Position numbers and translations under genes: made by a program. From positions 95,309 through 159,308 of the forward strand of contig CAZNUU010000001.1 in assembly GCA_964576615.1 (NCBI GenBank): a DNA stretch of 64,000 nt. The letters run 5' to 3'. Positions 1-63,754 of this stretch are shown one piece after another. Source of the stretch: an uncultured Candidatus Saccharibacteria bacterium. GTDB taxonomy: Bacteria; Patescibacteriota; Minisyncoccia; Phycocordibacterales; DATDWN01. Position 1 is the first letter of the stretch. Each line of letters starts with the position of its first letter. A model generated the notes under the pieces. That model was not told the origin of the DNA and did no database searches. It saw nothing but the letters and a program-made list of their open reading frames with translations.

Positions 1-28
1 GTCATGATAAAATTTACTTGGAGGTGAA

Positions 29-376
29 ATGATGATTTACGCCATGCGACCGCGCGGAAACGAGCAAGTCTGCACGAGGATTGAGTTCCGAGGGTTCGAG
101 ATCAGCATCGCGATGGATGCGTTCCACGCGGGATCTCCTGCCCTGATGCGACGAACGCTTGCGGTTTATTACAACGACCGCGACGTCACCGCGAACTTCT
201 ACCCGTCGGAAGGTGTGAGGATGACCCTCGACGGAGTGGTCGACTGCACCGGCGACGACCTCTTCGACATCATGAAGCAAATCGTCGAAGCGACGCCGAA
301 CTTCAAGTCCCCACACCCCAAGAAGAATACCGACTGCGATGTCTGCCACGGTCCCTGCATCGGCGCCGACGCATAG
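29..376 (+). CDS. Hypothetical protein (GC-rich cassette gene)
   Basis: ORF in a GC-rich segment. GGAGGTG SD at 20-26 lies just upstream of ATG 29/32. The opposite-strand ORF 14..409 is probably a high-GC artefact. No recognisable motif. Confidence 0.45.
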   Translation: MMIYAMRPRGNEQVCTRIEFRGFEISIAMDAFHAGSPALMRRTLAVYYNDRDVTANFYPSEGVRMTLDGVVDCTGDDLFDIMKQIVEATPNFKSPHPKKNTDCDVCHGPCIGADA

Positions 377-470
377 ACCAACACAGATCCCTGCCCCCAA
401 GGCCGTCACAACCTGACGGCCTCTTCTTATTTATAAAATTTTAATGGCTCGTCGTTTGCACGATGAGCCA

Positions 471-1070
471 TTAGTTTTTCCACCACAGTCGGAGCATGAG
501 CACCATGACACCGAATGTGAGAACGAAGGAGCGACCAGCATACGTTGCGGCCAGCCAATTTCGTTGCCGAAGCGGAATACTCCAGGCAATCCCAGTTACC
601 ACACCCATCAGTCCCCAGAGTACAAATGACTCTGAGTTCTGAGTTGCTGTCCAGAGATGATAAAGAGTGGGTACGTAACCGAGACCCATCACAACATTAA
701 TCGCGATGTTTGTCCGAAATGCTTTCTTGCTCGTGTAATAGTAGACTAGTGTCCCTAAAACGGAGAGCAAACAAAACTTTTGGACAAAGTTTTGGGCAAA
801 TGGACTACGAGCCCAAAGCAGTGCAAGCGACACCAAAGACGTCTGAACTACACTACCAATGTTCGACATGTTAGCTAGAAAATCTGGCTTACGCCCTTCT
901 TTCTCCTCATGTCGAATATAGGTAAATAGACTGGCTGACGAACCAATAAAAAAGGTCAGCCACGTTGCCAGAACCGGTGCACTTAGCCCCACAACAATCT
1001 GGTAGACATACCAGGAAGTTGTGAGACAGAGCGCAGCACTGTAGACGAAAGCGAAGCGTTGTTTACTCAT
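471..1070 (-). CDS. Polytopic membrane protein, hypothetical
   Basis: Multiple hydrophobic helices. GAGGAGG SD sits 5 nt upstream of ATG at 1070 (the ORF track extends to a GTG at 1073). Confidence 0.55.
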   Translation of the reverse strand: MSKQRFAFVYSAALCLTTSWYVYQIVVGLSAPVLATWLTFFIGSSASLFTYIRHEEKEGRKPDFLANMSNIGSVVQTSLVSLALLWARSPFAQNFVQKFCLLSVLGTLVYYYTSKKAFRTNIAINVVMGLGYVPTLYHLWTATQNSESFVLWGLMGVVTGIAWSIPLRQRNWLAATYAGRSFVLTFGVMVLMLRLWWKN

Positions 1071-1132
1071 CACAACCTCCTCTATTTTTCAGATTACACT
1101 AAATCGTTTAAAGATCAATATTTACTTAACGA

Positions 1133-1166
1133 AAATGCGCGCACCGTTCGAAAACAGTGCGCGCTT
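1133..1166 (-). terminator. Intrinsic terminator downstream of the TrxR-like gene
   Basis: GCGCGCAC-loop-GTGCGCGC stem, followed on the minus strand by ATTTTCGTT. Confidence 0.5.
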
Positions 1167-1171
1167 GAACA

Positions 1172-2155
1172 TTACTTGGAGTTCATCATCTTGAGATAGC
1201 TGAGGATGTTCTGCACAGCTATCGTCCCCTCCGCCGAGGCCGAGGCGAGACGTTTGATGGAACTGTGCCTCACATCCCCCGCCGCGAAAACACCGGGAAT
1301 TGAGGTCTCAAGAAAGAGCGGAGAGCGACTCGCAAGATTCCACCAGCCTGTGGGAATATCGTTCCCAGTGCAGACAAACCCCTTCTCGTCGCGGGAAAGT
1401 ATCCCGGCCATCCACTCGGTGTTGGTCACCTCTCCGATACAGATGAAGAGGTGCTGGCAGATGATCTGGCTCTCGCCTTCCGGCTTCAAGACCAGAATTT
1501 TCTCGAGCTTGCCATTGCCGACTGCCTCTCGAATCTGACAGTTGTAGTGGATCCGGATCTTGGACTTCTTGATCCGGTCGATGAGATAGGCGGACATGCT
1601 GGCAGAGAGATCCGACTTCTTGATCAGCATGTGAACATCACACCCCGGCTGCTTGGAGAGGTGAAGTACTGCTTGTCCGGCGGAATTCGCTCCGCCGATG
1701 ACCACAGCTGCACCCTCAAACGGGTGAGTAAGCGGTGGTGAGCCGTATTTCACTCCCTTGCCCAGAAGATGGGCAATCCCAGGAACGTCGTCCAGACGAC
1801 GATGAGTCGCGCCGAGCGCCAGGATGACCGTCTTGGACGGAATGACAGTGCCGTCATCCGCAGTAACGAGTACCCTGCCGTCCGACTGCTTGAGGCTCAC
1901 GATATTGCACGGCCCCAAGAACTCCGTCCCGAACTTCAGCGCCTGGGCGATCCCGCGAGAAGCGAGCTCGGCACCTGTGAGACCTTCGGGAAACCCGAAG
2001 TAGTTCTCGATCGCTGAGCTCTCGCTCGCCTGACCTCCACAGCCATCCTTCTCTCTTTCGATGAGAAGGGTCTTCAAACCCTCCGACTCTGCAGTAATGG
2101 CCGCGCCAAGTCCGGCCGGACCACGACCCACAATCACAACGTCATAGTTGTCCAT
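1172..2155 (-). CDS. Thioredoxin-reductase-family FAD/NAD(P)-binding flavoprotein lacking the CxxC redox centre (possible ferredoxin-NADP reductase type)
   Basis: N-terminal VVIVGRGPAGLGAA FAD motif, a GGQ...IENYFGFPEG segment and a second VVIGGANSAG dinucleotide motif. Where TrxB has CATCDG this protein has GSPPLTHP. GC-rich, with GGAGG SD and a TTGACT-17-TAATCT promoter upstream. Confidence 0.8.
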   Translation of the reverse strand: MDNYDVVIVGRGPAGLGAAITAESEGLKTLLIEREKDGCGGQASESSAIENYFGFPEGLTGAELASRGIAQALKFGTEFLGPCNIVSLKQSDGRVLVTADDGTVIPSKTVILALGATHRRLDDVPGIAHLLGKGVKYGSPPLTHPFEGAAVVIGGANSAGQAVLHLSKQPGCDVHMLIKKSDLSASMSAYLIDRIKKSKIRIHYNCQIREAVGNGKLEKILVLKPEGESQIICQHLFICIGEVTNTEWMAGILSRDEKGFVCTGNDIPTGWWNLASRSPLFLETSIPGVFAAGDVRHSSIKRLASASAEGTIAVQNILSYLKMMNSK

Positions 2156-2250
2156 GACAACCTCCGCGAATGAGATTACAATAGATTTATTGTAAAGTCA
2201 ATATCAAATAAATTTTAACTTTATGAAACAAAAAATGCTAGTATTTTTGT

Positions 2251-3834
2251 ATGTCTGAAGAAAATTTACCAAAGACTATATCTGGTGCTACGCCAGAAAT
2301 TCCATTTCAGATGTATGAAGTTTCTGGTCAAGACACGATTAGCCAACATGCTTTCGAGAGATATATAAAAGACAGAGACCAGGATGAGAGTATTTCAAAA
2401 AGTGCGGAAACACGAGAAGAAAAAAATTTACTTAAAAAAATAGACGCAGTCAATTATGCAAATAATTTTGGCCTTATTTCAGAGAACTTAGATAATCCGG
2501 ACCCTATTATGCAAGAAAGGGCAGCTGAGCTTATAGCTTTTATTCCCTCGGATAAACGACTTGAGCTTATAATGCGTTTCCTTGAAAAAGGTCCGAATGT
2601 ACAGGTTGCGGCACTTGAAGGTCTTCAACATTTAAGCCCAGAAGTGTGGGAAAATATTTTACCAGTGATCAAGGATAGAATTGATCTTGGACTAAATAGT
2701 AATGAGGAAGAAAAAGTGATAATGGCAATAAAAATGATTCACTATATATACAGTAGCGATGATACATCAAAATTTATAATGCGGGTTCTGACAGATAAAA
2801 TTGAGTACTGGGAATTATTAAGAAGTTCACTTTTTGATGCAAACGAGGAAGTAAAAAATTTTATCGACGAACTAGTGTTGAAAAAACTGAATTCAAAAGA
2901 CAATTCAGATAAAAAAATGGTAGTGGGTTTACTTCAGTTTGGACATGCCGAGAAAATACTTGAAACTATAATGAAAGTCACATTAGATGATGATGAATTT
3001 GCTTTTAAAATGTCCACTATAATATTTTCAGCTCCAGAAAAGGATCAGCTTAAATTTATTAGGACCATATTAGATAGGGACATTCGCTATCACGAACTGG
3101 CCGCGGAACTCATTAGTTACATGCTTGTAAATGCTCCGGTGGAAGAGGATGAACCTGAATTTAATGCAGTTTTAGATGAGACTATGAAAAAAGCCAAGGA
3201 AGATCTACTAGATGAGAACGTAGAAGTTCGACGAACTGGGGCTAGGATAGCAGTCTTACTTGATCCCAGTAATGACAATGAATTGACGAGCTTGGCAATT
3301 GAGAGAGGAGTCAGCGATGAGCTAGTTAAAGCACCTATTTATGCTAACACTGGGGTTAATAAACAGAAATTCTTTCGGGCTGATTTTTTCAAAACTGGAT
3401 CAGAGACAACTTTATTAGGGGGAGAACTAAAAGATAAAACTATTGTAAGACATATTGAACCAGGGGCATTCCTCACCTGGCAGAAGTTATTTGAGAATTA
3501 TAAATTGTGGCAGGACAATGGTTTCGATTATGTCCCGATCGAGCCGATTCACTCATATAGACTTGATAATAATGGTCTGGTAGATGTTTTTTGTGGAGTG
3601 CTTGATCTTAATCTAGAAGACTGGATGGAAAGAAGCAAGGCACATAATAAAGAATTGACAGAGCAGATGGAAAGAATAACAGGGGTATTAGAAAAGTCTG
3701 GCATAGAGCATGGCCACCCCCATGAGAAGAATTTTTGTTTGCGCTTTTGGCGAGATTCAAGCGGACAAGTAGATTTTAATAGAATCCCCAGACTTTATTT
3801 GATTGATTTTGATATGGCTGCATCACTACCTTAA
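2251..3834 (+). CDS. Hypothetical protein: helical-repeat N-terminus plus C-terminal atypical kinase-like motifs
   Basis: AT-rich native-style gene. The C-terminus has HGHPHEKNF, resembling the HGDxHxxN catalytic loop of APH/CotS/RIO kinases with Asp replaced by His. It is followed by LYLIDFDMA, a DFG/IDFD-like motif. Confidence 0.6.
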   Translation: MSEENLPKTISGATPEIPFQMYEVSGQDTISQHAFERYIKDRDQDESISKSAETREEKNLLKKIDAVNYANNFGLISENLDNPDPIMQERAAELIAFIPSDKRLELIMRFLEKGPNVQVAALEGLQHLSPEVWENILPVIKDRIDLGLNSNEEEKVIMAIKMIHYIYSSDDTSKFIMRVLTDKIEYWELLRSSLFDANEEVKNFIDELVLKKLNSKDNSDKKMVVGLLQFGHAEKILETIMKVTLDDDEFAFKMSTIIFSAPEKDQLKFIRTILDRDIRYHELAAELISYMLVNAPVEEDEPEFNAVLDETMKKAKEDLLDENVEVRRTGARIAVLLDPSNDNELTSLAIERGVSDELVKAPIYANTGVNKQKFFRADFFKTGSETTLLGGELKDKTIVRHIEPGAFLTWQKLFENYKLWQDNGFDYVPIEPIHSYRLDNNGLVDVFCGVLDLNLEDWMERSKAHNKELTEQMERITGVLEKSGIEHGHPHEKNFCLRFWRDSSGQVDFNRIPRLYLIDFDMAASLP

Positions 3835-4476
3835 ATCAAACATCCACCACTCTTCACTTTGATGAGGAATCATGTGAGAATGAACTATTCTATAGTCATA
3901 CTCTTTAACCATACTATGAAATTTTTCAATCGAACCACCGATGTTGACCCAACATGCGTAAATAGTTCCTTCTTTATTTAAATAATTTTTGGCAACTTGC
4001 AAAAAACGACGAAAAGTATTGAACCCGGGATCATAGATTGCTTTTTCGCGCAGCTCATTTACAGGAGCATCAATAGAGGGTAAATAAGCAACGATTGAAT
4101 CAAACTTTTCGAAAATATTTTGAAATAGATCCGATTCAATTACTTTAGATTTTGTGACACTATATTTTTTAAAATTTTCGTTTGTGTTCCCACATGCCCA
4201 AGGGTTAATGTCGACTGCCACCACTTCTCTTTCACCAGCCTGGTGAGCAATAATGCCTTGAATTCCTGTTCCCGACCCCATGTCCAAAACTTTCTTATCT
4301 CTGTACATTAAAATATTTTTTGGAGAGACACCTTCTATTTTTGAAATCTGCCTAGGCACAAACACATTTGGAAAAACAACGAGTCTAAATCCACGATAAA
4401 TTATTTCTTGCTCTTTATCGTAGAAGTGCTTGTGCACTTGTGCACCTTTGGCTGATCGTGTTCTTACCTGCGTCAT
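3826..4476 (-). CDS. Class I SAM-dependent methyltransferase (small-domain MTase)
   Basis: VLDMGSGTGIQGI motif I, VVAVDINP post-I and FDSIVAYLPS motif IV-like segment. Confidence 0.75.
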   Translation of the reverse strand: MTQVRTRSAKGAQVHKHFYDKEQEIIYRGFRLVVFPNVFVPRQISKIEGVSPKNILMYRDKKVLDMGSGTGIQGIIAHQAGEREVVAVDINPWACGNTNENFKKYSVTKSKVIESDLFQNIFEKFDSIVAYLPSIDAPVNELREKAIYDPGFNTFRRFLQVAKNYLNKEGTIYACWVNIGGSIEKFHSMVKEYDYRIVHSHMIPHQSEEWWMFDLR

Positions 4477-4532
4477 CCAACTAATATTACCTATGACTGA
4501 AAAAAGTCAAACATTATTCACGTATCTAACAA

Positions 4533-4561
4533 TTGACATACTTATAAAAATAGGTTAGTAT
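4533..4561 (+). promoter_or_regulatory. Sigma70-like promoter for the 4583 cassette gene
   Basis: TTGACA (4533-4538), a 17-nt spacer, then TAGTAT (4556-4561). GGAGG SD at 4574-4578. Confidence 0.4.
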
Positions 4562-4582
4562 CTTCAACAGATTGGAGGCAAG

Positions 4583-4882
4583 ATGAATCTGAACGGCAGA
4601 AGTTACAAGGCCGGGAAGGTGACTTTCAAGGTCCTCGAGGGTGAGGACTACCCGGCAAAGAAGGTGAGCGATCGATACGCCAAGATCCTCAACATCAAGG
4701 CGGGGTGTCTGGTTGGGGTGAAGTTCCATTCGACAGTAATTACGAACATCACCTACGACAAGGGTGTTGTACGCCTCAATAAGATCGAGGTGGACGGCAA
4801 GGTGATCGACAAGGCGGGCAAGATTTCCGAAGCTCTCGGCGTCGATGCACCCCTCATCCCCTACGACCTCTCGGAGCTCTAG
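4583..4882 (+). CDS. Hypothetical protein (GC-rich cassette gene)
   Basis: GC-rich ORF with consensus promoter, GGAGG SD and a hairpin spanning its stop codon. No known motif. Confidence 0.5.
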   Translation: MNLNGRSYKAGKVTFKVLEGEDYPAKKVSDRYAKILNIKAGCLVGVKFHSTVITNITYDKGVVRLNKIEVDGKVIDKAGKISEALGVDAPLIPYDLSEL

Positions 4883-4898
4883 TGAGCTCCACTGCCCG

Positions 4899-4932
4899 AG
4901 GCTGACCGGTATACCCGGCCAGCCTTTTTTAT
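4899..4932. terminator. Bidirectional intrinsic terminator between convergent genes
   Basis: GGAGCTC-TAGT-GAGCTCC hairpin at the stop, then a GGCTGACCGG...CCGGCCAGCC hairpin followed by a T-run (4925-4931). Confidence 0.5.
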
Positions 4933-7900
4933 TTAATGATCACGCCACCTTGATTTCTTTTCATACGCCTAAATAGTTTGTAGCTTTTCTTGGGCCTGTA
5001 CCTTACAAAGAGATTATCGATTACCTCATCATCTGGTATTGCCTCAATGCTGCCATGTTCCTTCTTCATCCCCTCCCCCTTGGCAATAATCTCTTGCTCC
5101 TCAACATATGTCTTTTGATCTTCCTCGTTAAAATCGATATGAAACTGCTTACCGCCTAGTGAAAAATCAGTAATTAGTCTTCTAGAATCTTTTAACCCTG
5201 CACCTTTTTTCGATTTCTTCGCTCGTCTTTTAATTTTCTCGCCTTTCTCGTTTACCTCGATAAGCTTAAAACTATTAGGCTCTCCTTTGGACATGTGGCC
5301 AACAAAGTCCTCGACAGAAAAATTATCATCAATATTTTCAACTTTCTCCAAAGTAATGAATTTAGACTGATAGGATTTCCCGACAACAATCTTCCCGGTA
5401 TAGTCCTCGACCACCTTAAAACCAAGCACTCTTATGTTTTGCTTAAAACCTTCCCAATCGCTAAAGTCATCTGTGTGAACAAGATCAATAATAGCTCTCC
5501 CCCCAACTTTCAAAACTCTGGACATCTCCTTCAGAACTTCCACCCGATCAATCCTACCTTTTGTCGGTTTGAAGTCAAAATAATGCAATGCGAATGTTAG
5601 ATTTAGATAATCAAATGAATTATTTTCGAACGGCAAACGAGTTAGCTGCCCTATGACCCTTTTCATACCTTCTTCTTTTTTAAAATGAGCTGGGTTAATA
5701 TCTGTGGCTGTAATTCTCCCAGCCAGTTCATCCCCACTATGCCTCTTTAACATCTCCGGTCCCGATGCTAGATCTAATATGCTTAAGCTATCAACGGGTT
5801 CGCCATTGTCTTCTATAAACTTTTTCAGAACAGTAGTAGCTATTCTGTTGGCATTCGACTGATAGTTACGTCTGCCTAATTCTTGGTAGGCATCCGCATA
5901 CTCTTCTCCTCTGGTCATCTCTTTACCTTGGATATCGAGATAACGCATGAATTCTTTTTCTCCAATCTCCCAAACTTCGCCGAATATTTGCATCAATTTT
6001 TCCCACTTGTTGAAATAATACCTTGCGAGTTCCGGATTAATTTCCTTATTCTCATCTTGATCTTCTGTCTTTTCAATTATTTCTCTCTCAAGTTCTGTCA
6101 AAGGAACTCCGCGGAGCAATTTTTCCACAGCTCTCTTTTTCATGGCGATAAATTGGTGAATCCCTTCTTCAATAGTACCCTTACCAATAAAAGTTTTGCT
6201 CTCGAGCTCATGCTTCAATCCGGGACGATAAACACGAGCTAGCTGTTGAGCTTTGATGTATTCAGTCCATGGCTCGTTATAAAAATAAACCATCTCCCCA
6301 CCTGAAAAATCAACTCCTTCGCTAGCTGTTTGACCTGAGACAACAACCAACATTTTTTCATCTGAACTATTCAACCTATCTTGAATTTCTTGTCTTGTCT
6401 TCTTTGAAGTATTCTTTTCACCCTCGATAATTTCAACATTTACATTCGGTGGTAAATTTATTTTTTCAATAATTGAACCGGGCCCTCGAATTATATTTTC
6501 AACATAATCATTAACGAACATAACAATTTTGTCGACCTTTTGAAAATCATCCTGTAATTCCTTCTCTACTCTCTTAGCTTTTGAGCAAATCACCCCTGGG
6601 GTCGGATCTACTATTTCGGGGTTCATTAGAAACTGGCGTAGTTTTTGGATTTTTTGTGTCGCGGTAAGCTCATCCTCTTCTTCCAAAATCGCCCCATACA
6701 CATCTCTCTCTAATTCAGTTAAATCTACATAAATTGGTTCATGTTCTATATGCTGGGGCATCTCAACACTCTCTCTCAAACTTTTCATCTGCATTCTAGG
6801 AACAAGCAGACTTCTCAGATCTATGAGATCACCGTTTATAATACTCCTGACCATCTCAGAGTTTTTCATTTCATTAAATTTCTCCGGATAAAGTAATCTT
6901 AGTATTAGAGCAACATCCTCGATCTTGTTTGGTACTGGAGTACCAGATAAAATAGCTAAGTATTTATCGTCCCCTTCAATTTTCTTAGCTAAAGAAAGCA
7001 GGAGCTGCGACCTTACCCCCTCATTTACATTTTTAAACTTGTGAACCTCGTCTACAATTAGCATACCTGGGTCAAGCTTCATGAGCTCAGTGGTATACTC
7101 CTCTGTCATTCTTTCGTGGGAGATAACTATATAATCATAAGTTGATGTATCCCGCTGTAGATCTTCTATACTTTCTACAACTAAAACGCTTGGATTCTCT
7201 CCAGGTTTAAAATAGGTGTGCAGATAACCTTTCTTTTTTTTATTATCCACCCAAGTTGAAACTACATTGCTAGGTACAACAACTAGAGCCTGTTTAATAC
7301 CGAGTGATTCTTTGGTTAAGATCGCAGACGCACTTTTGCCGAGACCCATTTCATCCGCGATTAGTATTTTCTTTTTATCTGAAAGCTCTCTTATATTTAT
7401 ACGCTGGTTTAGATCTGGAAAATCTCTCCCCTCTTTCAGTCCTAGAACTATTTTCTCTGGTTTTTCTATAGACAATAGTCCTGAGTAATACTTTTCAAGT
7501 TCAGTGATAACAAAATCGATATCTGTACTTCCTAGATTCGCTGACTTTTGTCTTACCCCCCCGATATATTCCTCAATGATTTCCTTGTCTTGCCTGTCTT
7601 TATTTTTTCTCTTTTCGAGGTGGTAATATTCCAGACAAGCTTCTTTCATTATCTCAAGAAGCCCTTCGCGTAACTTCGGATCTTTGACAAACTCAACTGC
7701 AATTGGTAAATCATCCACTCTGAAGCCATGCCTTACAACCAAAAAATCTCCGATGTAGTCCGCCATAAGACTTTTAACATATTCCTCTTTGACTGGAAGA
7801 CCTCGAAACTCTGGCCTAAATTTGTATAGAATATCTAGGACTTTGGATGGACCAAAGAGCCCGATAAGACTTCTAAACTGCTGGGCAGTTAAGCTATCGC

Positions 7901-9089: not shown

Positions 9090-9283
9090 AAAATTGATTT
9101 TAGCACATTTTTAGCATGTATTTGTTCGAAATGATTTACTGTCGAATTAATGTTGACAAAATCTGTAAAATATGCTAGTGTTGCCCCAGCACTGCATTCC
9201 TGCAGTCAACTCGGGCATAAGACGCCTTAGGCGCACTGCTCCCGGGTATCGTTCGTTAACATCACCCAACTAGGAGTGATCGT

Positions 9284-10414: not shown

Positions 10415-10428
10415 AGTGAAGGTGATGA

Positions 10429-10462
10429 GGGCGTTCACATCGCGTGAACGCCCTTTTCTTTT
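10429..10462 (+). terminator. Intrinsic terminator
   Basis: GGGCGTTCAC-ATCGC-GTGAACGCCC perfect 10-bp stem followed by TTTTCTTTT. Confidence 0.7.
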
Positions 10463-10521
10463 GCATAAAATAATTGACAAAGTTTTAGGAAAGGAATTTA
10501 CTTAAGAAAGAAGGAGGTGCG

Positions 10522-53428: not shown

Positions 53429-53447
53429 ACTTTGGGTTTATTATTTT

Positions 53448-53840: not shown

Positions 53841-53860
53841 ATTATTTTTTTATCCGCACA

Positions 53861-54127: not shown

Positions 54128-54140
54128 AATAAAACGAGAT

Positions 54141-54689: not shown

Positions 54690-54715
54690 GAAATTATTAT
54701 AACACTAAAACGAAC

Positions 54716-54867
54716 CATGTCGTGAAGAAAGCCTTGGGAGCGCACTTTCGCGAACACGAGGTGAGAAGCGAAGCTTCGCAAGACCTTGAGCACGTAGTAG
54801 CGAAAGGTGTACAGCTTCTGTAAGAAGACTTTCAGCAGAAATTTATCCGTGCTTTCTTCACGACATG
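54716..54867 (+). repeat. Structured repeat, copy 3 (modules A-B-C, 152 nt)
   Basis: Outer arms CATGTCGTGAAGAAAGC and GCTTTCTTCACGACATG are perfectly complementary over 17 bp. Compensatory changes relative to copy 1. Confidence 0.6.
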
Positions 54868-54879
54868 GTGAGTACACTC

Positions 54880-55845: not shown

Positions 55846-55924
55846 TGTGTAATATTATATAACAAAAACGGGAATATTACAAGCATAACTAAAAACCCTG
55901 GAAACTCCAGGGTTTTTAGTTTAT

Positions 55925-58900
55925 TTACTGTGCGTTAGGGTTCTTTGACCAAGGTACAAGTGGTGGAAGTTTTAAGGCTAGATCTGGACACTCTAGATTG
56001 TTGATTTGTCGTAGTGTCGAAAGATAAATAATTCCAGTTGGCTTACTCTCACCCCAAGGCCTTAGAATTTCATCTGAATATTTTGCTTGGAATGCGAGAG
56101 CCACGTTATAAGTTTGTGACCCGTAAAAACCAGTTATTGGTAAGGCTGATTTCATCCATTTATTTAGGAAAGTCTGAAGTTTCTTAACTTGAGTAATGTT
56201 GTTTTTACTTGAACCAAGTCTTACGTGCTTATCCATATAAAGTCCACACGATTCTCCCAAGACCTGACCTAAAACCTGACCTCCACCATTGTTTGGTACA
56301 AAAGTAGAGATTGGACCATTGCCACCGCCTCCTCCGCCATATCCACCTTGTGAGTAAACTGGAGGCGCTGGAGGATTGTCGTTATTTGTAATTGTACATG
56401 TCTTGTTATCACCTGCAGCTAAAGTTACGCTCCCATTTGAGTCACAGTCACCGCTAAACGAGCCGGTGTAGCTAGGATCTGAAACCTCTGCCACAGCATG
56501 GACTCCTACTGTCGAAGTTGTTGCAACGCTAGATGAGGCTAGGACGCCATCGATATAGAGTGGGAAGTCCGAAACAACCTTAGTTCCACCATTATCATTT
56601 ACCACAACTTTTGTGACTGTAAGTTTTGGTAAGAAAGCGGAACAATCTGGATCGTTAAGATCAACTAACCCGTCACCGTCATTATCTTGACCATCTGTAC
56701 AAAGCTGCAATGTAGTTTCATTACCTTCGCTTTGAGCATTTGGGGTATAAGAGTCAGGATTATTTGCATCTTTATCGCTGTGACAACCTGGGTCATGGGA
56801 GTCGATTAGCTGGTCTTGATCGTTGTCTAAATTATCAGAGCAAGCTGGAATGTCATTGTTTGTAATTACACAAGTTGCAGAGTCCCCTAGACCAAGCGAG
56901 ATCTCGGAGCAACTACCATAAGTAGTGCTGTAACCAGGAGCTGAAACTTCACTTACGGAGTAACCTCCTGGACCAACGATTAGAACGTCCTCGCCATCTG
57001 CTTCAAAAACATAAGGATTTTCAGTATCACCATTTACTATAAATGAGAACGAAGTAGTTGCTTGAGATTTACCACTATCATTTATAAGTACTTTTTGGAC
57101 AATGAGCTTGGTTTGTTTGTCATTATTTGTAATCGTACAATTTTTTGTTTCCCCAGCAGCAATTGTTCCTGAGCAATCATCTGAGAGCACTGATGTATAT
57201 CCAGAATTGGCTACTTCCGTAATTGAATACTCGCCCGGGTTAACTGTAACTTGATTTGAGCCATCTGATTCAAATGAGATAGCATCTCCACCGTTTACCT
57301 TGAATGAGAAGTCAGATGTTGTAGCTGTACCATAATCGTCATTGATCACAATTTTATTAATAACCAACTTTGGTATGAATTGCGAACAATCTGGATCGTT
57401 AAGATCAACTAACCCGTCACCGTCATTATCTTGACCATCTGTACAAAGCTGCAATGTAGTTTCATTTCCTTCAGATGCACCGTTTGGTGTGTAGGAGTCA
57501 GGATTACTTGCATCCTTATCACTGTGACAACCTGGATCCTGAGCATCGATCAACTGGTCACCGTCATCATCTGCACCATTGGAACAGACTGGAAGTGGGT
57601 TATCGTTGTTTGTAATTGTACAAGAAACATTCTCGCCTAGACCAATGGTTAACATGTTGCCAACAAGTATTCCGCCACCATTACATGACCAAGCAGAAGC
57701 TGTGTAACCAGATGGACCTGATTCGGAAAGAGTATAGATCCCGGCGGAGAAACCTGGAGTGTTTGAAACTGATGGTCCAGGACCAGAAAATCCTGTTGGG
57801 CCGGCAGCTGTTAGTGTCCAAGCGGAAGCAGGAGTAGTACCGTTGTTGTCGTTATCATCGATTACAATCTTGTTTAAAGTAAGGGAAGGCTCATTGTCAT
57901 TGTTGGTAATCGTACAATTCTTTACATCACCCAAGTTAAGTGTAACTGAACCGTTAGCTGCACAATCACCTGAGATTGCGCCGGTATAACCAGCACTACC
58001 TTGTTCGCTTACAGTAGTGGTAGTCGCATTAAACATATTCTGAACTCCAGATAGAACTGACTGTAAACCAACGAGCAAAGTAAAGGTAGAAGTTGTAGCA
58101 GTACCTCCGTTGTTATTTACAACAACTTTTGTGACAGTAAGCTTTGCAGCTACGTCATCATTTGTAATAGTACAAATTTTTGCACCACCATTTACAACTG
58201 TTACATTTCCATTTGAGTCACAATCACCCGAGTAAGTTCCGGCATAGCCTGAGACAGAATCTTCACTAACATTGTAAGAACCGCCAGCAAGAGTATAAGT
58301 TTTACCAGTAGTTGATCCAACAGCTGGAGAACCTGTGACATCAACATTGTTTTGTTTTACATGAAGATTGAAATCTGAAGCAACTTTTGTTCCACCATTG
58401 TTGTTTGTCACAAGTTTAACAACCTTAAGTGTGCCATTCGTTGGGGCCACATCATCATTAGTTATAGTACAGGTTACTGAGCCATTTAATGGCACTGCTA
58501 TATTTGTACAATTACTATAAGAAGTGTTGTAGCCAGCTGCTGCAACTTCTGTAATGGTGTAATTACCAACTGCTACAACTAGGTGATTTTCACCGTGAGT
58601 GGAATCAACCTGAATAAATGGTGTGGATGTACCATTATTTACTTTAAATGAGAATTTGTTTGGTGTACTTGTGCCACTGTTATCATTCACCACTACCTTC
58701 TTAACAATAAGATTGCCTTGTGGTGGTACAACAACAATAGTTGTGTCAGTCGAATCTCCAGAACCTTCAGAACCAGTACACGTTTGGTGACAAATATTTA
58801 CAATTATTTTGAAACTAGATGTTGTAGCATTGGTATAAGAGTGTGTTAACGGTCCCCAATTCCAATTAAATCCTCCGCCAGAAAATGTTCCGGCTGGCAC

Positions 58901-59158
58901 AGTAACATCCGTATTAGCAGAACCATCGCCCCAGTTAACAACTAGATGCTGCGCACTTTGCTGACCCACATAGTTCGTAGAACTTGCGTTCCCACTAATT
59001 GAGAGAGGGTTAGCAGAAACTACTGGTTGATTTATCTTTACGTGATAATCCGGAGAAGCTGCGGTAGCTACAGCTGGAATTAAAGTAGCTACAGCTGGAA
59101 CTAACGAATATGGCAATACCATCGCCAATGTCACAAGTGATGTAATTATTTTTTTCAT
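55925..59158 (-). CDS. Giant surface adhesin-like protein with tandem beta-domains, Ca-binding D-x-D-x-DG repeats and C-terminal peptidoglycan-binding domain
   Basis: Signal peptide from MKKIITSLVTLAM; start chosen there. More than 8 domains each ending ...CTITNNDN. Duplicated segment CTDGQDNDGDGLVDLNDPDC. C-terminal PG-binding-like region. Confidence 0.7.
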   Translation of the reverse strand: MKKIITSLVTLAMVLPYSLVPAVATLIPAVATAASPDYHVKINQPVVSANPLSISGNASSTNYVGQQSAQHLVVNWGDGSANTDVTVPAGTFSGGGFNWNWGPLTHSYTNATTSSFKIIVNICHQTCTGSEGSGDSTDTTIVVVPPQGNLIVKKVVVNDNSGTSTPNKFSFKVNNGTSTPFIQVDSTHGENHLVVAVGNYTITEVAAAGYNTSYSNCTNIAVPLNGSVTCTITNDDVAPTNGTLKVVKLVTNNNGGTKVASDFNLHVKQNNVDVTGSPAVGSTTGKTYTLAGGSYNVSEDSVSGYAGTYSGDCDSNGNVTVVNGGAKICTITNDDVAAKLTVTKVVVNNNGGTATTSTFTLLVGLQSVLSGVQNMFNATTTTVSEQGSAGYTGAISGDCAANGSVTLNLGDVKNCTITNNDNEPSLTLNKIVIDDNDNNGTTPASAWTLTAAGPTGFSGPGPSVSNTPGFSAGIYTLSESGPSGYTASAWSCNGGGILVGNMLTIGLGENVSCTITNNDNPLPVCSNGADDDGDQLIDAQDPGCHSDKDASNPDSYTPNGASEGNETTLQLCTDGQDNDGDGLVDLNDPDCSQFIPKLVINKIVINDDYGTATTSDFSFKVNGGDAISFESDGSNQVTVNPGEYSITEVANSGYTSVLSDDCSGTIAAGETKNCTITNNDKQTKLIVQKVLINDSGKSQATTSFSFIVNGDTENPYVFEADGEDVLIVGPGGYSVSEVSAPGYSTTYGSCSEISLGLGDSATCVITNNDIPACSDNLDNDQDQLIDSHDPGCHSDKDANNPDSYTPNAQSEGNETTLQLCTDGQDNDGDGLVDLNDPDCSAFLPKLTVTKVVVNDNGGTKVVSDFPLYIDGVLASSSVATTSTVGVHAVAEVSDPSYTGSFSGDCDSNGSVTLAAGDNKTCTITNNDNPPAPPVYSQGGYGGGGGGNGPISTFVPNNGGGQVLGQVLGESCGLYMDKHVRLGSSKNNITQVKKLQTFLNKWMKSALPITGFYGSQTYNVALAFQAKYSDEILRPWGESKPTGIIYLSTLRQINNLECPDLALKLPPLVPWSKNPNAQ

Positions 59159-59358
59159 TAAAATATTGTTTGTTATTAAATAAACCCTTAATATTAGCCA
59201 CAAAATACCAATAACTAACCTTGGACCAAAACTACCACAGAAGACAAGATAAGGCAAGCCCCTCGCACTATACACAGAAAACTACTTTTTTGGAAAAAAA
59301 CCATAAAGCTGCGAGGTGTTTTTTTAAAAAAGTGGATAAGACGTGGACAAACTGTAGA

Positions 59359-60870
59359 TTAGACATAACCAGGAAAGAAATCGACTTTAATATTTGAACT
59401 CTTCACCCCCATTTTTTTAAGTGTTGCCTCAAAAGCATCTACCATTACATGCGGACCAGAAATATAAAATTTTCTCTCCATAAAATCTGGAGTTTCTTTT
59501 TTTATACTTTCCTCTGAAATAGTCCCGACTCGAAAGTTTGCTAACATCACTTTTCCAGATGGATCACCAAAAAAATAAACTGCCTTTAGGCCAACTTTTT
59601 TTTCGGCATTGTCAAAAACATCTTTATAAACTATGTCATTTGCTGTCTTATTTGAAAAAAACAATACTGCATCCCGGGTTTGGTTTCGATCTAGAAGATC
59701 TTGAACTATAGATCTAAATGGTGTAATCCCTATTCCCCCTGCAATAAAAGCAAGTTTTTGATCCTTGTCCTGTGGTAAAACAAACTCGCCCGATAGCTGA
59801 GAGGCCATTATTCTATCTCCTGGTGATAGGCCCGCTAATTTATTCTTAAAACTGGAACCGTTGGGATAGAATTTAACACCAAGCCTCAAGTTCTCCTCCA
59901 TCGGGGAGGAAGCAATAGTAAAATATCTTCTATTTCCTCTCATATCGGCTTTATCGTGTCCCAAAGTCCATTCCAAATATTGCCCAGCTTTAAAATTAAT
60001 CTTTTTTCCTTTCCAAACAAACTCGTACACATCGGAAGATAATTTGTTTTTTTGAACAAGTGTTAGAACTAATCGATCTTTTGGACTAACGATATATGCA
60101 AAAATATTCCCAATGATTAGCGCAAATTCTGGCGTGGAATACAATGGCCCAAAGTGAAACTGCACCCCATATAAGATACCGACAATTGCCCCATAAATAA
60201 CTTGAAGCCTTCTAGTTGGTGGAGTAGTGGAAGGCTCGGTGAGCATTATTACCCCAAGGAAAATCAGTGGACCATGAGAGAAGATTTGATCTAATGTATC
60301 AACACCCAATTTCAAAGAAAAGCCGAAATAGAGAGCGGAAAGAAAGCCAAAAATGGCAAAAGAGAAAAACATTGAGAATCTCTTCACTTTTCTTAAAACC
60401 AAAATACCTAGGATGGCTACCGGTATGATAAGAGCATCGCCTCCTACCCACCAGGCAGACATGCCACTACCCAAAAGACCAGCAATAAATATTGCTATAG
60501 CGGTGGGGTTAAATATATGTTTCTTTTTTATAGCTAATATGTACTTTGAAGCCATTGCCCCGACTCCGACTAAAACTGTGACCCATAAATCATTCAGAGT
60601 AGATATGGGAAAAAGAATAAAAAACAAAATAAAAGCCGTGATTAAGTAAGACTCTGAGTTAGCATCTACTTTAAATAATTTGGCTAACAACAAATTGGCG
60701 AGATAGCATGAAACAGATAATGCGAGAGCTGAATATATTAAACTTAAGGGACTGAAGGCGACAAAACCAAAAAAACTCATCCCTACAGAGTAAACAATCA
60801 AAACTAGTAGTCCGTACAAGACAAGCTTGTATATGGTAATTTTATTTAAAAAATCATCAACATATTTCAT
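59359..60870 (-). CDS. Membrane-bound FNR-like oxidoreductase (polytopic N-terminal domain fused to an FAD/NAD(P)-binding reductase)
   Basis: About 8 N-terminal TM helices. RRYFTIASSP (FAD RxYS-type motif) and AGGIGITPF (NAD GGxGxxP motif). Confidence 0.7.
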   Translation of the reverse strand: MKYVDDFLNKITIYKLVLYGLLVLIVYSVGMSFFGFVAFSPLSLIYSALALSVSCYLANLLLAKLFKVDANSESYLITAFILFFILFPISTLNDLWVTVLVGVGAMASKYILAIKKKHIFNPTAIAIFIAGLLGSGMSAWWVGGDALIIPVAILGILVLRKVKRFSMFFSFAIFGFLSALYFGFSLKLGVDTLDQIFSHGPLIFLGVIMLTEPSTTPPTRRLQVIYGAIVGILYGVQFHFGPLYSTPEFALIIGNIFAYIVSPKDRLVLTLVQKNKLSSDVYEFVWKGKKINFKAGQYLEWTLGHDKADMRGNRRYFTIASSPMEENLRLGVKFYPNGSSFKNKLAGLSPGDRIMASQLSGEFVLPQDKDQKLAFIAGGIGITPFRSIVQDLLDRNQTRDAVLFFSNKTANDIVYKDVFDNAEKKVGLKAVYFFGDPSGKVMLANFRVGTISEESIKKETPDFMERKFYISGPHVMVDAFEATLKKMGVKSSNIKVDFFPGYV

Positions 60871-60890
60871 AAATATATTTTAGCATTTCC

Positions 60891-61757
60891 CTAAATAAAC
60901 ATCTCTGCGTTAAAACCGAGGGATCTCTTTATGGAATAGTCTGAAAAGACAATCAGATATTCGAATTTATGGTTATTTATTTTTTCTGGAGGGACAAAAA
61001 ATAAGGCAGTCGTAACCAAATCAGCTAAAATTGTGCTCTCTGCTATTGCCCAAACAGCTAATACATCATTAGCGGATGAAAGTGTCTCGGGATTTATTAT
61101 ATGATGAAAATTTCCCCACTTTCTTCTATTCCCTGCTGAACCACAAATTGATTTGTTTAGAATTGGGATAACCCCAATTACTGAACCAGCATCATCTGGG
61201 TGTTCTAGTCCGACCTTAAGAACCTCCCCGTCCTCACCTCTCTGTCTAATATCTCCCCCCGCATCCACACAGTACGACTTCATTCCTTCTGTTTCTAGAA
61301 GCTCAGATACGATATCAACCAGGTATCCCTTACCTCCTGCCCCAAAGTCCAGAAGTACAGGTTCTTTTATAGTAAGCTTTGGTTCTTGCCAAGACATTGT
61401 GTCTTCCCACTTTTTTGGCTTGGTTAGGATTTTTTCTTCTAGCGAATACCTCGAGTCATAACCAGCATCAACCAGAACTTGCCCAATTAGAGGTGTAACT
61501 AGACTATCAGTTGCGTCATAAAATTCTTTATAAAGCGAAACCATCTTGTGAGCATCAGAAGGTAATACAAATTCCCCTGATTCCTTGGACATTTTGGTTA
61601 CAAGCGAGTCATCTCTAAACCTGGAGTAGTCTTTATCAAAAATATCTATCCGTTTTATTATTTTTTTTAAAAGCAAGTCTTCACTTTCTTCTGAAAGAGG
61701 ATCTTTAATATCAATCACCCAGGAAGTCCCGATGGCTGGAAATCCGAACTTTGTCAT
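60891..61757 (-). CDS. apbE: FAD:protein FMN transferase (ApbE family)
   Basis: GAGGKGYLVD, DAGGDI and HHIINPET ApbE motifs. Confidence 0.85.
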   Translation of the reverse strand: MTKFGFPAIGTSWVIDIKDPLSEESEDLLLKKIIKRIDIFDKDYSRFRDDSLVTKMSKESGEFVLPSDAHKMVSLYKEFYDATDSLVTPLIGQVLVDAGYDSRYSLEEKILTKPKKWEDTMSWQEPKLTIKEPVLLDFGAGGKGYLVDIVSELLETEGMKSYCVDAGGDIRQRGEDGEVLKVGLEHPDDAGSVIGVIPILNKSICGSAGNRRKWGNFHHIINPETLSSANDVLAVWAIAESTILADLVTTALFFVPPEKINNHKFEYLIVFSDYSIKRSLGFNAEMFI

Positions 61758-61963
61758 TTTTTTATTTAGATGAATAATTACTTTTTAAAACATTGCGCAG
61801 GAAATTAGAAAATAACGACGATATGTACCAGTCTGGAGACACTGTCTGAGCGAAGCGGGTTTGCGAAAGGACCAGCATAGAGGAGATTATTTTCTTGATT
61901 TCCGAGCATAGCAAAAGTTCACCAGAACTTTATGCGTGTTTTAAAAAGTAATTACTCATAATT

Positions 61964-62467
61964 CTAGACCTTTGCTTGTACTTCTACTTTAGCCAAAGCG
62001 TCCATAAAACCTTTCGGCGCAAGAGACGAACCGGAAACCTTGTCGAGTTGTACATCATCAATCTTTTTGCCGATAACAAGTGGTTTATAACCAGAAATGA
62101 ATAAACCTTGGTAGTGAATGGAGTTTGGCCTAAATGCCTTCGAGACAACATCTGCACTAACTATCACATCATCTTCCAGAGTAATCGTCACTCCTAACTG
62201 TTCAGCTCCACCTGGAGAGTAATAGTCGCCTACCACAGAATAAGTTCCATCTTTGTATTTATTTTTTTGATCCGAAACTGTGCCGTCTTCCATCTGAACG
62301 TCATTGTTAGTGGTTGTAGTAGTTGCTACAGCGTCATTCGAATCCGATAAAGTATCAGTTGTGTTTTTCTGTTTGAGATATCTGTACCCTCCATACCCGA
62401 TTAAAGCCAAAATAATAACCACTGCAATCCAAATTAAAGCCTTGCTTCCTTTTTTTTGTTCATCCAT
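61964..62467 (-). CDS. Membrane-anchored FMN-binding domain protein (candidate ApbE substrate)
   Basis: N-terminal TM helix. YKDGTY...VSGSSLAPKGF resembles the FMN_bind domain with its (S/T)GA(T/S) flavinylation-site region. Confidence 0.65.
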   Translation of the reverse strand: MDEQKKGSKALIWIAVVIILALIGYGGYRYLKQKNTTDTLSDSNDAVATTTTTNNDVQMEDGTVSDQKNKYKDGTYSVVGDYYSPGGAEQLGVTITLEDDVIVSADVVSKAFRPNSIHYQGLFISGYKPLVIGKKIDDVQLDKVSGSSLAPKGFMDALAKVEVQAKV

Positions 62468-62478
62468 TGTTTTAATTG

Positions 62479-62826
62479 TTAACTATTATTTTTCCAGCCT
62501 TTTTTCATTCCCCTCTTTGGCGCAAATTCTTGGCTAACCTCGCTTGGCACAATATTGTTTTGCTGCAAAATTTGCTTCATAGTTTTGCCGGATCTTAATT
62601 CTTGTTTTATTTCATCTTTATTTAACCCTAAAGTTCCGGCAATGCCATTGGAATTCCAGTGGTGCATCATTTGCATACCGGTTGGCGCACTTCTCTCACT
62701 ATAATGAGAATCGAGGGTTTCTGCTAAAGCAACATTACTTGAGCCCATAAGGATAATTCCAGTGGCAATAGCAGAACTTGCTCCAGAAATTATCGCTTTT
62801 TTTAATTTTCTATATTTTTTCTTCAT
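62479..62826 (-). CDS. Secreted small hypothetical protein
   Basis: N-terminal signal/TM segment. No motif. Confidence 0.45.
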   Translation of the reverse strand: MKKKYRKLKKAIISGASSAIATGIILMGSSNVALAETLDSHYSERSAPTGMQMMHHWNSNGIAGTLGLNKDEIKQELRSGKTMKQILQQNNIVPSEVSQEFAPKRGMKKGWKNNS

Positions 62827-62965
62827 TTCAAATTTATATACTTAATTTTATTTTAACAATATATTTATTTTTTGAAGTATTGATCCCATCACTTACATAT
62901 GTCAGAATATTAATAACAGGTTCATTAATTAATACGTTTAAAACGCCCAAATCGTTGCACCTATA

Positions 62966-63361
62966 ATGGCAAGATCGATCATCAACGACAGGTTCTGGAG
63001 ATATATCACAAATATTTGGTGCTTGATATGCTATGCGGCTATCATTTACGATTTTATTTACGATCATGCTTTAGGGGACGTACTGCCTTCCGTCCTAGTT
63101 ATCTATGTGGCGCTTCTTACTATCTATGCTGGGGTAAAGGAATTTGAGAGATGGTTTGAAAGACATGATGGTCGCCATCCTGGGGAGTGGTTTGTAATCG
63201 GCTGGACAGTCATAGTTATGGGTCTATTTTTAGCCAAGGTGTTTACTCACAAGAATTACCCTATTCCAGGCGAAGTCCTATCTACATACATAGCGGTCCT
63301 AAGTATTATGGCTATTACCCAAAAATCTAAGAGGTTAAAATCCGAGAGAAAAAGACGTTGA
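62966..63361 (+). CDS. Hypothetical membrane protein
   Basis: Four hydrophobic helices. Confidence 0.5.
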   Translation: MARSIINDRFWRYITNIWCLICYAAIIYDFIYDHALGDVLPSVLVIYVALLTIYAGVKEFERWFERHDGRHPGEWFVIGWTVIVMGLFLAKVFTHKNYPIPGEVLSTYIAVLSIMAITQKSKRLKSERKRR

Positions 63362-63406
63362 TTGACTTTTCTATATTTTGTACCATTATATTAGAGGGAG
63401 GCTTCC

Positions 63407-63754
63407 ATGAAGACGACTGCGACGCGAGATGTCGGCGGCTTCACATTTGAAGCCGAGCTAATTGACTCACCCGCGGCATCGTGTACCTTACCCCAGGACC
63501 TAAAGTGCCTTCTTTCAGTTGCAAGAGCTGGCAAGGTGCTTTACCTGGGTCAAGAAGTCATGCCCTCAGGCCATCCTAGTCTGCCCATACCGAGAACACT
63601 TCGAGGCTGGATTGCGGGAATTCACTTCCCCAACCCAGAGGATCGCAAGAATCGCATCCTCGATGTGTACTGGTTGGGCACGAGCAGGATCATGCAACTC
63701 AAGATGGAGATGGTCGAGGGATGCTCGTACGAGAACGAAAGAGGGGTCGCATGA
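63407..63754 (+). CDS. Hypothetical protein (GC-rich cassette)
   Basis: TTGACT-17-ATTATA promoter. GGGAGG SD. Two terminator hairpins downstream. Confidence 0.5.
   Translation: MKTTATRDVGGFTFEAELIDSPAASCTLPQDLKCLLSVARAGKVLYLGQEVMPSGHPSLPIPRTLRGWIAGIHFPNPEDRKNRILDVYWLGTSRIMQLKMEMVEGCSYENERGVA

Follow-up and report, generated by a model that had tools for sequence, protein, structure and literature searches.

A stretch of 64,000 nucleotides from contig CAZNUU010000001.1 (the 64-kb window) is a mosaic in which small GC-rich gene cassettes lie at the boundaries between AT-rich core genes of a Paceibacteria genome, which belongs to the Candidate Phyla Radiation (CPR). Two gene classes can be told apart in the window by composition, by type of promoter and by the signal for starting translation. 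We consider it fairly probable that the cassettes are moron-like units of horizontal origin, which accumulate at permissive gene boundaries of an AT-rich core whose own genes are mostly leaderless.

Overall GC of the window is 41.8% (median over sliding windows 0.41), and its distribution is bimodal: 17 islands of 0.50-0.61 GC make up 16% of the length. These islands had been located in an earlier, sequence-only reading of this DNA, and the sliding-window profile places them at the same coordinates. That reading put the background at about one-third GC, which is too low, and counted 10883-11455 as a cassette. The latter gene (Flavodoxin_2/KefF-like, GC 0.43) belongs to the native class, with a leaderless TAAAAT box and orthologs in relatives that are 60-78% identical. 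Confirmed are 21 cassette open reading frames (ORFs) plus one non-coding GC-rich unit, at a density of about one cassette per 3 kb. Pooled cassette coding sequences have a GC content of 0.549 (0.57, 0.42 and 0.65 at the three codon positions, with third-position GC, or GC3, at 0.650), against 0.397 (0.49, 0.36 and 0.35; GC3 0.345) for pooled native coding sequences. Single cassette ORFs range from 0.47 to 0.61 in GC and from 0.46 to 0.80 in GC3, and native ORFs from 0.29 to 0.43 and from 0.21 to 0.48. The Muto-Osawa and Lawrence-Ochman regressions relate codon-position GC to genome GC. Applied to the pooled values, they point to a source genome of about 49-58% GC for the cassettes, with no GC3 deficit, and of 34-40% for the natives. 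The GARP/FYMINK amino-acid ratio is 1.18 in cassettes versus 0.66 in natives, and the window copies equal or exceed the median of their family in six of seven families, the exception being 4583-4882 (0.65 versus 0.70).

A Shine-Dalgarno sequence (SD; GGAGG, AGGAG or GAGG, 3-8 nucleotides upstream) precedes all 21 cassette ORFs, six starts (22991, 34197, 37054, 40583, 44977 and 45618) having been corrected before the count, versus only one of 48 native ORFs (Fisher p = 8e-17). Both the strong SD of the cassettes and its general absence from native genes had been seen in the sequence-only reading, which also gave every cassette a near-perfect promoter and a perfect-stem terminator. The promoter claim stands for most units: an exact TTGACA occurs 16-17 nucleotides from a TAnnnT box in seven and TTGACG or TTGACT in four more, but the match is weaker in units 10522, 24870, 25156 and 43006. 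Likewise, a terminator with a GC-rich stem of 8-14 bp, zero or one mismatch and a T-rich tail follows 18 of the 21 ORFs, and the three without a strong one are all in multi-gene units (22991 and 40362-40583, both internal, and 23351-23545, the last of its unit). Promoters, leaders and terminators vary in sequence from one cassette to the next, so the cassettes were not built from reused parts. By these signals, each cassette is predicted to be an autonomous expression unit, composed of a sigma-70-type -35/-10 promoter, an SD leader, a GC-rich ORF and an intrinsic terminator.

The native backbone is largely monocistronic and includes uvrABC, tgt, rpmA, rplI, rplU, recR, cysS, dnaB, ddl, xseAB, msrAB and dinB. 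Here, an extended -10 box (TGnTAnnnT) typically ends 6-8 nucleotides before the ATG, with neither a -35 consensus nor an SD; examples are the genes at 2251, 4929, 25737, 26820, 48570, 54141 and 59359. Overall, a TAnnnT box lies 4-12 nucleotides upstream of the start in 23 of 48 native ORFs, and ten of the 23 boxes carry the TG extension, where about one would be expected by chance from base composition. A promoter box this close to the ATG, with no SD, suggests that the native mRNAs are leaderless, and the pattern points to a transcriptome that is mostly leaderless in this Paceibacteria genome. We found no description of leaderless core transcription in CPR in the literature searched. Across Paceibacteria, SD usage at uvrA and uvrB starts was noisy when set against genome GC (13-23% in every GC class) and did not discriminate between classes.

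Sharply bimodal composition and textbook-consensus expression signals might also arise from an artefact, either an assembly or binning chimera of AT-rich and GC-rich organisms or a synthetic sequence, and the sequence-only reading had raised both options. We regard an artefact as hardly credible. Exact look-up placed the native proteins (UvrA, UvrB and a 527-residue ORF) and the cassette proteins together on one 236,541-bp NCBI contig, and several of them are present in Logan assemblies too. Logan contigs, made with a separate assembler from two sequencing runs (SRR12313479 and SRR12313480), are 100% identical to window positions 3759-6477, 4131-5758 and 28782-35547. Two of these contigs (L001 and L002) cross both junctions of 4583-4882, and a third (L003) crosses 31374-31883, 33475-34197 and 35185-35436, so native-cassette-native junctions recur identically in independent assemblies and are not chimeric. 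Engineering is contradicted by the same architecture in relatives from unrelated samples (L004, L174-176 and L178 among the comparison loci; SRR12486998, JGI 3300045356, ENA ERZ27332908 and the metagenome-assembled genome (MAG) DAORIV01) and by the lack of reuse among signal sequences. In the syntenic core, the cassettes also occupy exactly the room left between the stop codons, terminators and promoters of neighboring genes. The mosaic is really natural Paceibacteria DNA, neither an assembly error nor an engineered construct.

To view the cassettes against related genomes, all window ORFs were compared by tblastn with 163 loci (2.4 Mb), mostly uvrA/uvrB neighborhoods of Paceibacteria. Among GTDB species representatives, the nearest UvrA loci are from Parcubacteria, Zambryskibacteria and Paceibacteria MAGs (74-83% identity), which places the organism in the Paceibacteria; the best UvrA in the genome scan was 83% identical and the best UvrB in the metagenome scan 70%. 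Intergenic DNA is unalignable at these distances, thus exact insertion boundaries do not come from the relatives. The gene order ddl-uvrC-uvrA-uvrB-tgt-FKBP-LOG-xseB-xseA is kept in L035, L004, L005-7 and L173. In none of these did tblastn find the window's uvr-region cassette genes at that locus, and no cassette lies at the uvrC|uvrA, uvrA|uvrB, uvrB|tgt, tgt|FKBP or FKBP|LOG junction. The native genes that flank cassettes in the window are therefore contiguous without them from ddl through FKBP, a comparison to which the sequence-only reading had pointed. More than 100 other Paceibacteria uvr neighborhoods also lack the window cassettes.

Some relatives carry different cargo at the same positions. 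Between uvrC and ddl, where the window has its non-coding unit, L004 (GC 0.35) has an Adk-like gene of GC 0.49-0.53 with a TTGACg-17-TATACT promoter, a GGGGAG SD and a terminator. In L178 (GC 0.425; Flavodoxin_2 and YceG 78% and 69% identical to those of the window), six of 13 genes have a GC of 0.49-0.59 and an SD each, and stand among leaderless natives. The gap 3' of Flavodoxin_2 contains 9284 and 10522 in the window versus four other cassettes in L178, and the cysS|dnaB gap contains the MOSC gene in the window versus a different, AT-rich gene in L174. Conversely, the YceG|SurA-like gap is an empty 116 bp in the window but holds a full promoter-SD-KGG-terminator unit in L178. Variable cargo between conserved core genes, the mark of a hotspot of horizontal gene transfer (HGT), is thus seen at four gaps. 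A homolog of ORF 29-376 (44-47% identity) occupies, in L178, a hotspot that is not the one of the window.

An exhaustive phmmer search with eight ORFan cassettes, concatenated, found families for six. The family of ORF 9284-10414 has more than 226 homologs at 45-71% identity, and every named one is from Patescibacteria. In six Paceibacteria genomes with backgrounds of 0.415-0.545 GC, its members lie 8-20 GC points above their own locus; all six have their own TTGACA promoter, three share a similar leader, and the neighbors differ, in some genomes being serine recombinases or type IV secretion system (T4SS) pilins. Twelve relatives (36-52% identity) come from viral contigs in IMG/VR; the GC of these contigs is 0.52-0.65, gene and contig agree in GC, and one of the genes lies within a phage replication module with a primase, a methyltransferase and a sliding clamp. 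The motif D96-G97-x-Q99-R100 is invariant in 19 sequences. The protein has no Pfam match; its AlphaFold model (pLDDT 80) is closest in the PDB to ParB-N (5k5d), PadC, ParB and BrxU (probability at most 1.0, E about 1e-3, TM 0.2-0.5), and a ParB/Srx-like fold is predicted for the N-terminal domain. This gene's 5' untranslated region (UTR; 9176-9283, + strand, 102 nucleotides) has a motif in common with homologs in L084 (around 8690-8740) and L086 (around 4700-4750), in which a P1 stem (CUCGGG/CCCGGG) surrounds conserved internal loops (CAUAAG and ACUGCU) and an inner hairpin that varies. Covariation is seen at one or two pairs, Rfam has no match, and three further homologs have only a looser CAUAAAGUCGCC-like box. 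The motif could be a leader or riboswitch-like element.

Closest to the TrxR-like cassette protein, at 57-59% identity, is a small clade to which a 'Minisyncoccia bacterium' belongs. In the next tier (43-50%) are response-regulator-TrxR fusions, matched in their C-terminal half; they come from Micromonospora, Catellatospora, Nonomuraea, Chloroflexi and Acidobacteria. Homologs reach 54% identity for 4583-4882 and are numerous at 36-43% for 43006-43332. For ORF 10522-10839, a search of representative sequences gave only a self match among the best 150 of 362 matches, and searches of three cassette families against sequences of solved structures gave none. By homology, the cargo sources shown are phages of GC-rich bacteria, bacteria of Actinomycetota/Chloroflexi type and GC-richer Patescibacteria. 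A phage origin for all cassettes was considered and rejected: only the 9284 family is linked to phages, none of the five other families scanned in IMG/VR was found on viral contigs, PHROGs gave one weak match (43006-43332, to a family of unknown function) and nothing else, and in INPHARED the only tblastn match, a weak one, linked the 22958 membrane ORF with a 735-kb megaphage. A plasmid origin was likewise dropped, with no match in PLSDB.

Some relatives do carry homologous cassettes at the same sites. In L174-176 (GC 0.36; core proteins 62-85% identical to those of the window), the L27|L9 site has homologs of 22492-22881 (58-62% identity) and of the Zn-ribbon ORF, as in the window. The former homolog has TTGACA-17-TATAAT, a GAGGAGG SD and a GC3 of 0.67, versus 0.17-0.26 in native genes. 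L174 also has a small GC-rich ORF (0.52) after recR that is similar by eye, with no tblastn match listed for it. L173 (UvrA 74-78% identical) has a homolog of 13906-14607 at 52% identity together with a homologous terminator and a convergent tRNA-Ala, again as in the window. In the sequence-only reading, the same GC-rich genes at the same sites in relatives, with the same composition, would have meant native, vertically inherited genes. Such homologs exist for 22492-22881, the Zn ribbon and 13906-14607, and the composition is kept at least for 22492-22881 (the recR ORFs were compared by eye only, unscored), but the uvr-region cassettes are absent from their site in relatives.

Several of these results weigh against an origin of the cassettes by horizontal accumulation. 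The same-site homologs, at 52-62% identity, are close in divergence to the flanking core proteins (41-85%). Their codon identity at conserved residues equals the expectation at saturation, as it does for core genes, so the same-site copies diverged long ago, yet both are still GC-rich: GC3 is 0.67 where native GC3 is 0.2-0.35. Recent transfer that has not yet been ameliorated is consequently an insufficient account of the GC persisting at conserved sites. The cassette promoter regions are AT-rich, unlike a donor of 55-60% GC, and donors of that kind therefore did not supply the units whole. Donor taxa are available for only two families, most family members having no taxon label. There is no integrase or transposase among the cassette or native ORFs of the window, and no flanking direct or inverted repeats, attachment (att) sites, target duplications or terminal inverted repeats beyond chance; the longest flanking repeats average 6.5 nucleotides versus 6.3 in controls. 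The lack of integrase, transposase and attachment repeats agrees with the sequence-only reading.

The same-site homologs, with their core-like divergence (L27|L9 and, by eye, the recR ORF in L174; L173) and a GC3 of 0.67 in both lineages despite synonymous saturation, would suit an account in which the GC-rich genes are a long-resident, vertically inherited second native class, whose composition and SD/-35 expression are actively maintained, either by selection on mRNA or translation or, as could also be, by GC-biased gene conversion at recombination-prone loci. Consistent with it, members of the 9284 family exceed their host locus in GC in six of six Paceibacteria genomes, and the HExxH-family member of L177 is native-like in GC yet keeps a TTGACT promoter and an SD. 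This member also indicates that amelioration of composition does occur, without loss of the signal architecture. However, most cassettes have no same-site counterpart in L035, L004 or the more than 100 other uvr neighborhoods, the same hotspot holds different cargo in different relatives, and families have GC-rich kin outside the clade, in phages and Actinomycetota. Moreover, ribosomal protein genes of the window genome have a low GC3 (0.26-0.34), so translational selection for GC3 is not evident. Given this balance, vertical inheritance of the whole class seems unlikely to us. The same-site GC-rich cassettes themselves are either old residents with maintained GC or have been delivered repeatedly to the same hotspots, as independent arrivals or anew through recombination in homologous flanks.

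A distinctly unlikely extension is a two-tier genome, in which an AT-rich, leaderless, extended -10 core coexists with a selectively maintained second class that is GC-rich, SD-led and -35-dependent. If this were true, active maintenance at conserved sites would have preserved the composition and the signals of the second tier for a long time. One possible reason is that SD-dependent translation serves as a separately controlled regime, for example in host contact or stress; more speculatively, the signals might be adapted to expression inside a host cell that is richer in GC and uses SDs.

The moron-like architecture of the cassettes also raises the idea that they are cargo of a dedicated mobile system, as morons left by prophages, integron-like cassettes or the substrates of a trans-acting recombinase encoded elsewhere in the genome. 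The 9284 family occurs in phage replication modules and elsewhere beside serine recombinases or T4SS pilins, and one cassette adjoins a tRNA gene. We nonetheless hold this to be very unlikely, since the 64 kb contain no phage structural, integrase or transposase genes, flanking repeats are at chance level, and the boundaries share no motif. The 3' hairpins have no common sequence and are followed by T-runs, as ordinary terminators of differing sequence would be. The families other than 9284 that were scanned in IMG/VR, and the PLSDB search, gave no mobile element either.

Under the favored explanation, moron-like accumulation of horizontally acquired units, the cargo would come from a gene pool of GC-richer genomes, a pool that then circulates among Paceibacteria. 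Recruitment or evolution within Paceibacteria is the probable origin of the AT-rich promoter parts, after which the whole unit would spread among relatives. Most core genes have a promoter that abuts the ATG, and at least some end in a terminator of their own, so almost any gene boundary may be a neutral landing site, and a self-contained unit between two such genes would disturb nothing. An incoming ORF could hardly gain a promoter placed exactly 6-8 nucleotides from its AUG, while any upstream promoter would work with an SD. The split between SD-led and leaderless genes may therefore reflect that an incoming ORF keeps its SD and cannot easily acquire an ATG-abutting promoter. Integration is probably by DNA uptake (competence), followed by illegitimate or flank-homology recombination. 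We infer this route, as we do the actual expression of the units and the reason for their lasting GC-richness.

Table 1. Coordinates, strands and sequence signals of the native backbone and the GC-rich units of the window
Feature	Coordinates	Strand	Content and signals
Native backbone	2251..62826	.	~48 AT-rich core genes
Cassette	1..430	+	ORF 29-376, 115 aa, GC 0.59, GC3 0.78; GGAGG SD; hairpin 400-422; promoter lost at window edge
Cassette	441..1130	-	ORF 471-1070, membrane protein, GC 0.47; GGAGG SD; shared bidirectional hairpin 441-474
Cassette	1137..2200	-	ORF 1172-2155, TrxR-like Pyr_redox_2, GC 0.57; TTGACT-17-TAATCT; GGAGG SD; terminator 1137-1164
Cassette	4533..4925	+	ORF 4583-4882, 99 aa, GC3 0.77; TTGACA-17-TAGTAT; GGAGG SD; 12-bp terminator
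Cassette	9147..10455	+	ORF 9284-10414, 376 aa, predicted ParB/Srx-fold N-domain with DGxQR motif, GC 0.61, GC3 0.80; TTGACA-17-TAGTGT; 102-nt 5' UTR; AGGAG SD; terminator 10427-10455
Cassette	10470..10872	+	ORF 10522-10839, 105 aa, GC 0.49; TTGACA -35, poor -10; GGAGG SD; ends in bidirectional terminator 10839-10870
Cassette	13851..14670	-	ORF 13906-14607, 233 aa, Cys-cluster family, GC 0.59; TTGACA-17-TAGTCT; GGGAG SD; 14-bp terminator; adjoins tRNA-Ala 13769-13840
Three-gene block, rpmA (L27)|rplI (L9)	22415..23560	+	TTGACA-16-TATAAT promoter, ORF 22492-22881, terminator, second promoter, ORFs 22991-23347 (membrane protein) and 23351-23545 (Zn ribbon)
Two small ORFs 3' of recR	24760..25375	+	ORFs 24870-25064 and 25156-25341, GC 0.50-0.54; SD and perfect 8-bp GC hairpin each
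Cassette, cysS|dnaB	31330..31925	+	ORF 31374-31883, MOSC-domain protein, GC 0.54; SD; terminator
Cassette	33415..34250	-	ORF 33475-34197, HExxH membrane protein, GC 0.51; TTTACA-17-TACAGT; GGAGG SD; terminator
Non-coding unit, uvrC|ddl	35185..35436	-	GC 0.53; TTGACT-17-TATAGT; hairpin with T-run; no convincing ORF
Cassette, uvrC|uvrA	37020..37290	+	ORF 37054-37248, 64-aa membrane peptide, GC3 0.74; TTGACA-17-TACTAT; GGAGG SD; terminator
Two-gene cassette, uvrA|uvrB	40070..40625	-	ORFs 40362-40583 and 40108-40362, membrane peptides; TTGACG-17-TATTTT; terminator
Cassette, uvrB|tgt	42965..43385	-	ORF 43006-43332, 108 aa, GC 0.53; weak promoter match; GAGGT SD; 13-bp terminator
Cassette, tgt|FKBP gene	44655..45020	-	ORF 44699-44977, 92 aa, GC 0.56; TTGACG-17-TACTAT; GGAGG SD; terminator
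Cassette, FKBP|LOG	45578..46275	+	ORF 45618-46232, cytidylate-kinase-like P-loop kinase, GC 0.53; TTGACA-17-TATTTT; GGAGG SD; 13-bp terminator
Cassette	63360..63815	+	ORF 63407-63754, 115 aa, GC 0.54; TTGACT -35; GGGAGG SD; 14-bp terminator

Structured RNA as an explanation of the islands was rejected: Rfam recognizes two tRNAs only, and protein homologs exist for six of the eight ORFan cassettes searched. Among the islands, 35185-35436 alone looks non-coding. A long rod is the predicted fold (-111 kcal/mol, z = -6.6) of its putative transcript of about 220 nucleotides, and the unit is a candidate small RNA, with no homolog in the comparison loci and no Rfam match. The two small ORFs after recR are possible paralogs, alike by eye but unscored. 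Cassettes acting as defense systems were considered as well, and rejected when the only PADLOC match proved to be the kinase 45618-46232, through generic similarity to pVip-kinase and VakA. Immediately beside 13906-14607 is a divergent pair of tRNA-Ala genes 67 bp apart, at 13628-13701 (-) and 13769-13840 (+), with anticodons TGC and GGC.

Some features of the native backbone deserve mention in their own right. The protein of 4929-9089 (- strand, 1386 residues) combines winged helix-turn-helix domains, an SNF2/helicase core and a C-terminal S-adenosylmethionine-dependent methyltransferase domain; its gene has AT-rich native composition and a putative leaderless promoter, and such a fusion is unusual for a reduced genome. 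A surface-type protein of 1116 residues (55925-59275, - strand) has five SpaA_2/prealbumin-like repeats, and DNA repeats within its gene have periods of about 260-740 nucleotides and are 60-81% identical. A stand-alone GIY-YIG nuclease-domain protein (53861-54127, - strand, 88 residues, native composition) has a homolog in L173 (9234-9482; 51% identity) and lies near one copy of an intergenic repeat of about 170 nucleotides. Four copies of this repeat are in the window (28690-28851, 54711-54872, 47142-47213, 35487-35608 and 35685-35753), and others are in L177 (3731-3846), L113, L020 and L028 (3170-3218). Three copies share a 72-nucleotide core at 96-99% identity; the fourth lacks it, in frame. 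The repeat contains a cTTGTCAAG...CTTGACAAg hairpin, and at 47060-47275 a 13-bp inverted repeat closes the copy, which is strongly structured (z = -5.9). A peptide-like frame is conserved (..FLREHGYF..LLTEAVHLSLLRAQGLAKLRFSPR..), with stops in some copies. The family could be a miniature inverted-repeat transposable element, an RNA or a decayed gene. In L028 (Zambryskibacteria), the uvrB alignment is about 35 residues longer across a GC-enriched stretch (0.46 versus 0.34, region 2701-3350) that also matches part of this repeat family, and there may be an insertion inside uvrB.

CPR bacteria, or Patescibacteria, make up a large share of bacterial diversity and have tiny genomes and host-dependent lives, and how they gain genes is poorly understood. 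At this locus, gene gain proceeds by single self-contained units, unusually densely and with no visible recombinase. The contrast between leaderless and SD-led genes can be used as a rule for telling core genes from flexible ones and for improving the calling of start codons. Same-site cassettes that are GC-rich despite saturation provide a test case of amelioration versus maintained composition.

Among known systems, the nearest in logic are the phage morons, reportedly described by Juhala, Hendrix and colleagues in 2000 from HK97 and HK022. Like morons, the cassettes are single genes or tiny groups with their own sigma-70 promoter and factor-independent terminator (at the sequence level, about 11 units have TTGAC[ATG] -35/-10 promoters), they lie between genes that are adjacent in related genomes, and their composition is unlike that of their neighbors (GC 0.55 versus 0.40, GC3 0.65 versus 0.35). 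These are three of the four defining features of morons; the fourth, residence in a phage or prophage, does not apply. Unlike for morons, the recipient is a cellular core chromosome, at uvrABC, ribosomal protein, tRNA-synthetase and dnaB genes, the units recur about once per 3 kb, and their mode of starting translation differs from that of the host genes.

A second parallel is with core-flanked HGT hotspots, or flexible genomic islets, reportedly treated for example by Oliveira, Touchon and Rocha in 2017. There too, variable genes lie between syntenic core genes, a given gap varies in cargo from relative to relative, and many sites have no integrase. Hotspots of that kind are typically rare, at about 1% of intervals, and contain islands of several genes, whereas here a large share of consecutive boundaries hold one small unit each, and every unit is shifted towards GC-rich.

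Integron cassettes are promoterless, carry attC ends and are arrayed by intI/attI. The window units resemble them in being small, mostly single-ORF and of heterogeneous, often unknown function, with a 3' inverted repeat. They differ in that they are dispersed and have their own promoters, and in that their 3' repeats are ordinary terminators with T-runs; no integrase occurs in the 64 kb, and no dedicated attC covariance model was run. As for islands, integrative conjugative elements (ICEs) and prophages, the window has no recombinase and no flanking repeats beyond those of controls, and only 13906-14607 adjoins a tRNA gene. The cassettes are not integron cassettes, islands or ICEs.

Horizontal transfer in Patescibacteria has been reported before. 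A survey of groundwater Patescibacteria MAGs found individually transferred genes as well as islands, up to 13% of genome length, with most transfers among Patescibacteria themselves and otherwise diverse donors, and it proposed competence and pili as the route (PMC12455944). The survey does not deal with per-gene autonomy of promoter, SD and terminator (a term search found no mention of promoters), with a split between a leaderless core and SD-led accessory genes or with GC persistence at conserved sites, and in a limited literature search we did not find these described elsewhere. The sequence-only reading had proposed an unprecedented fine-grained horizontal mosaic of accessory genes. The mosaic itself, with its own signals between native genes, is borne out; 'unprecedented' goes too far, given the match to the logic of phage morons and core-flanked hotspots and the transfers already reported (PMC12455944). 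Gene-by-gene HGT in Patescibacteria is already published, and moron-like accretion at hotspots in a CPR chromosome is a variant of it.

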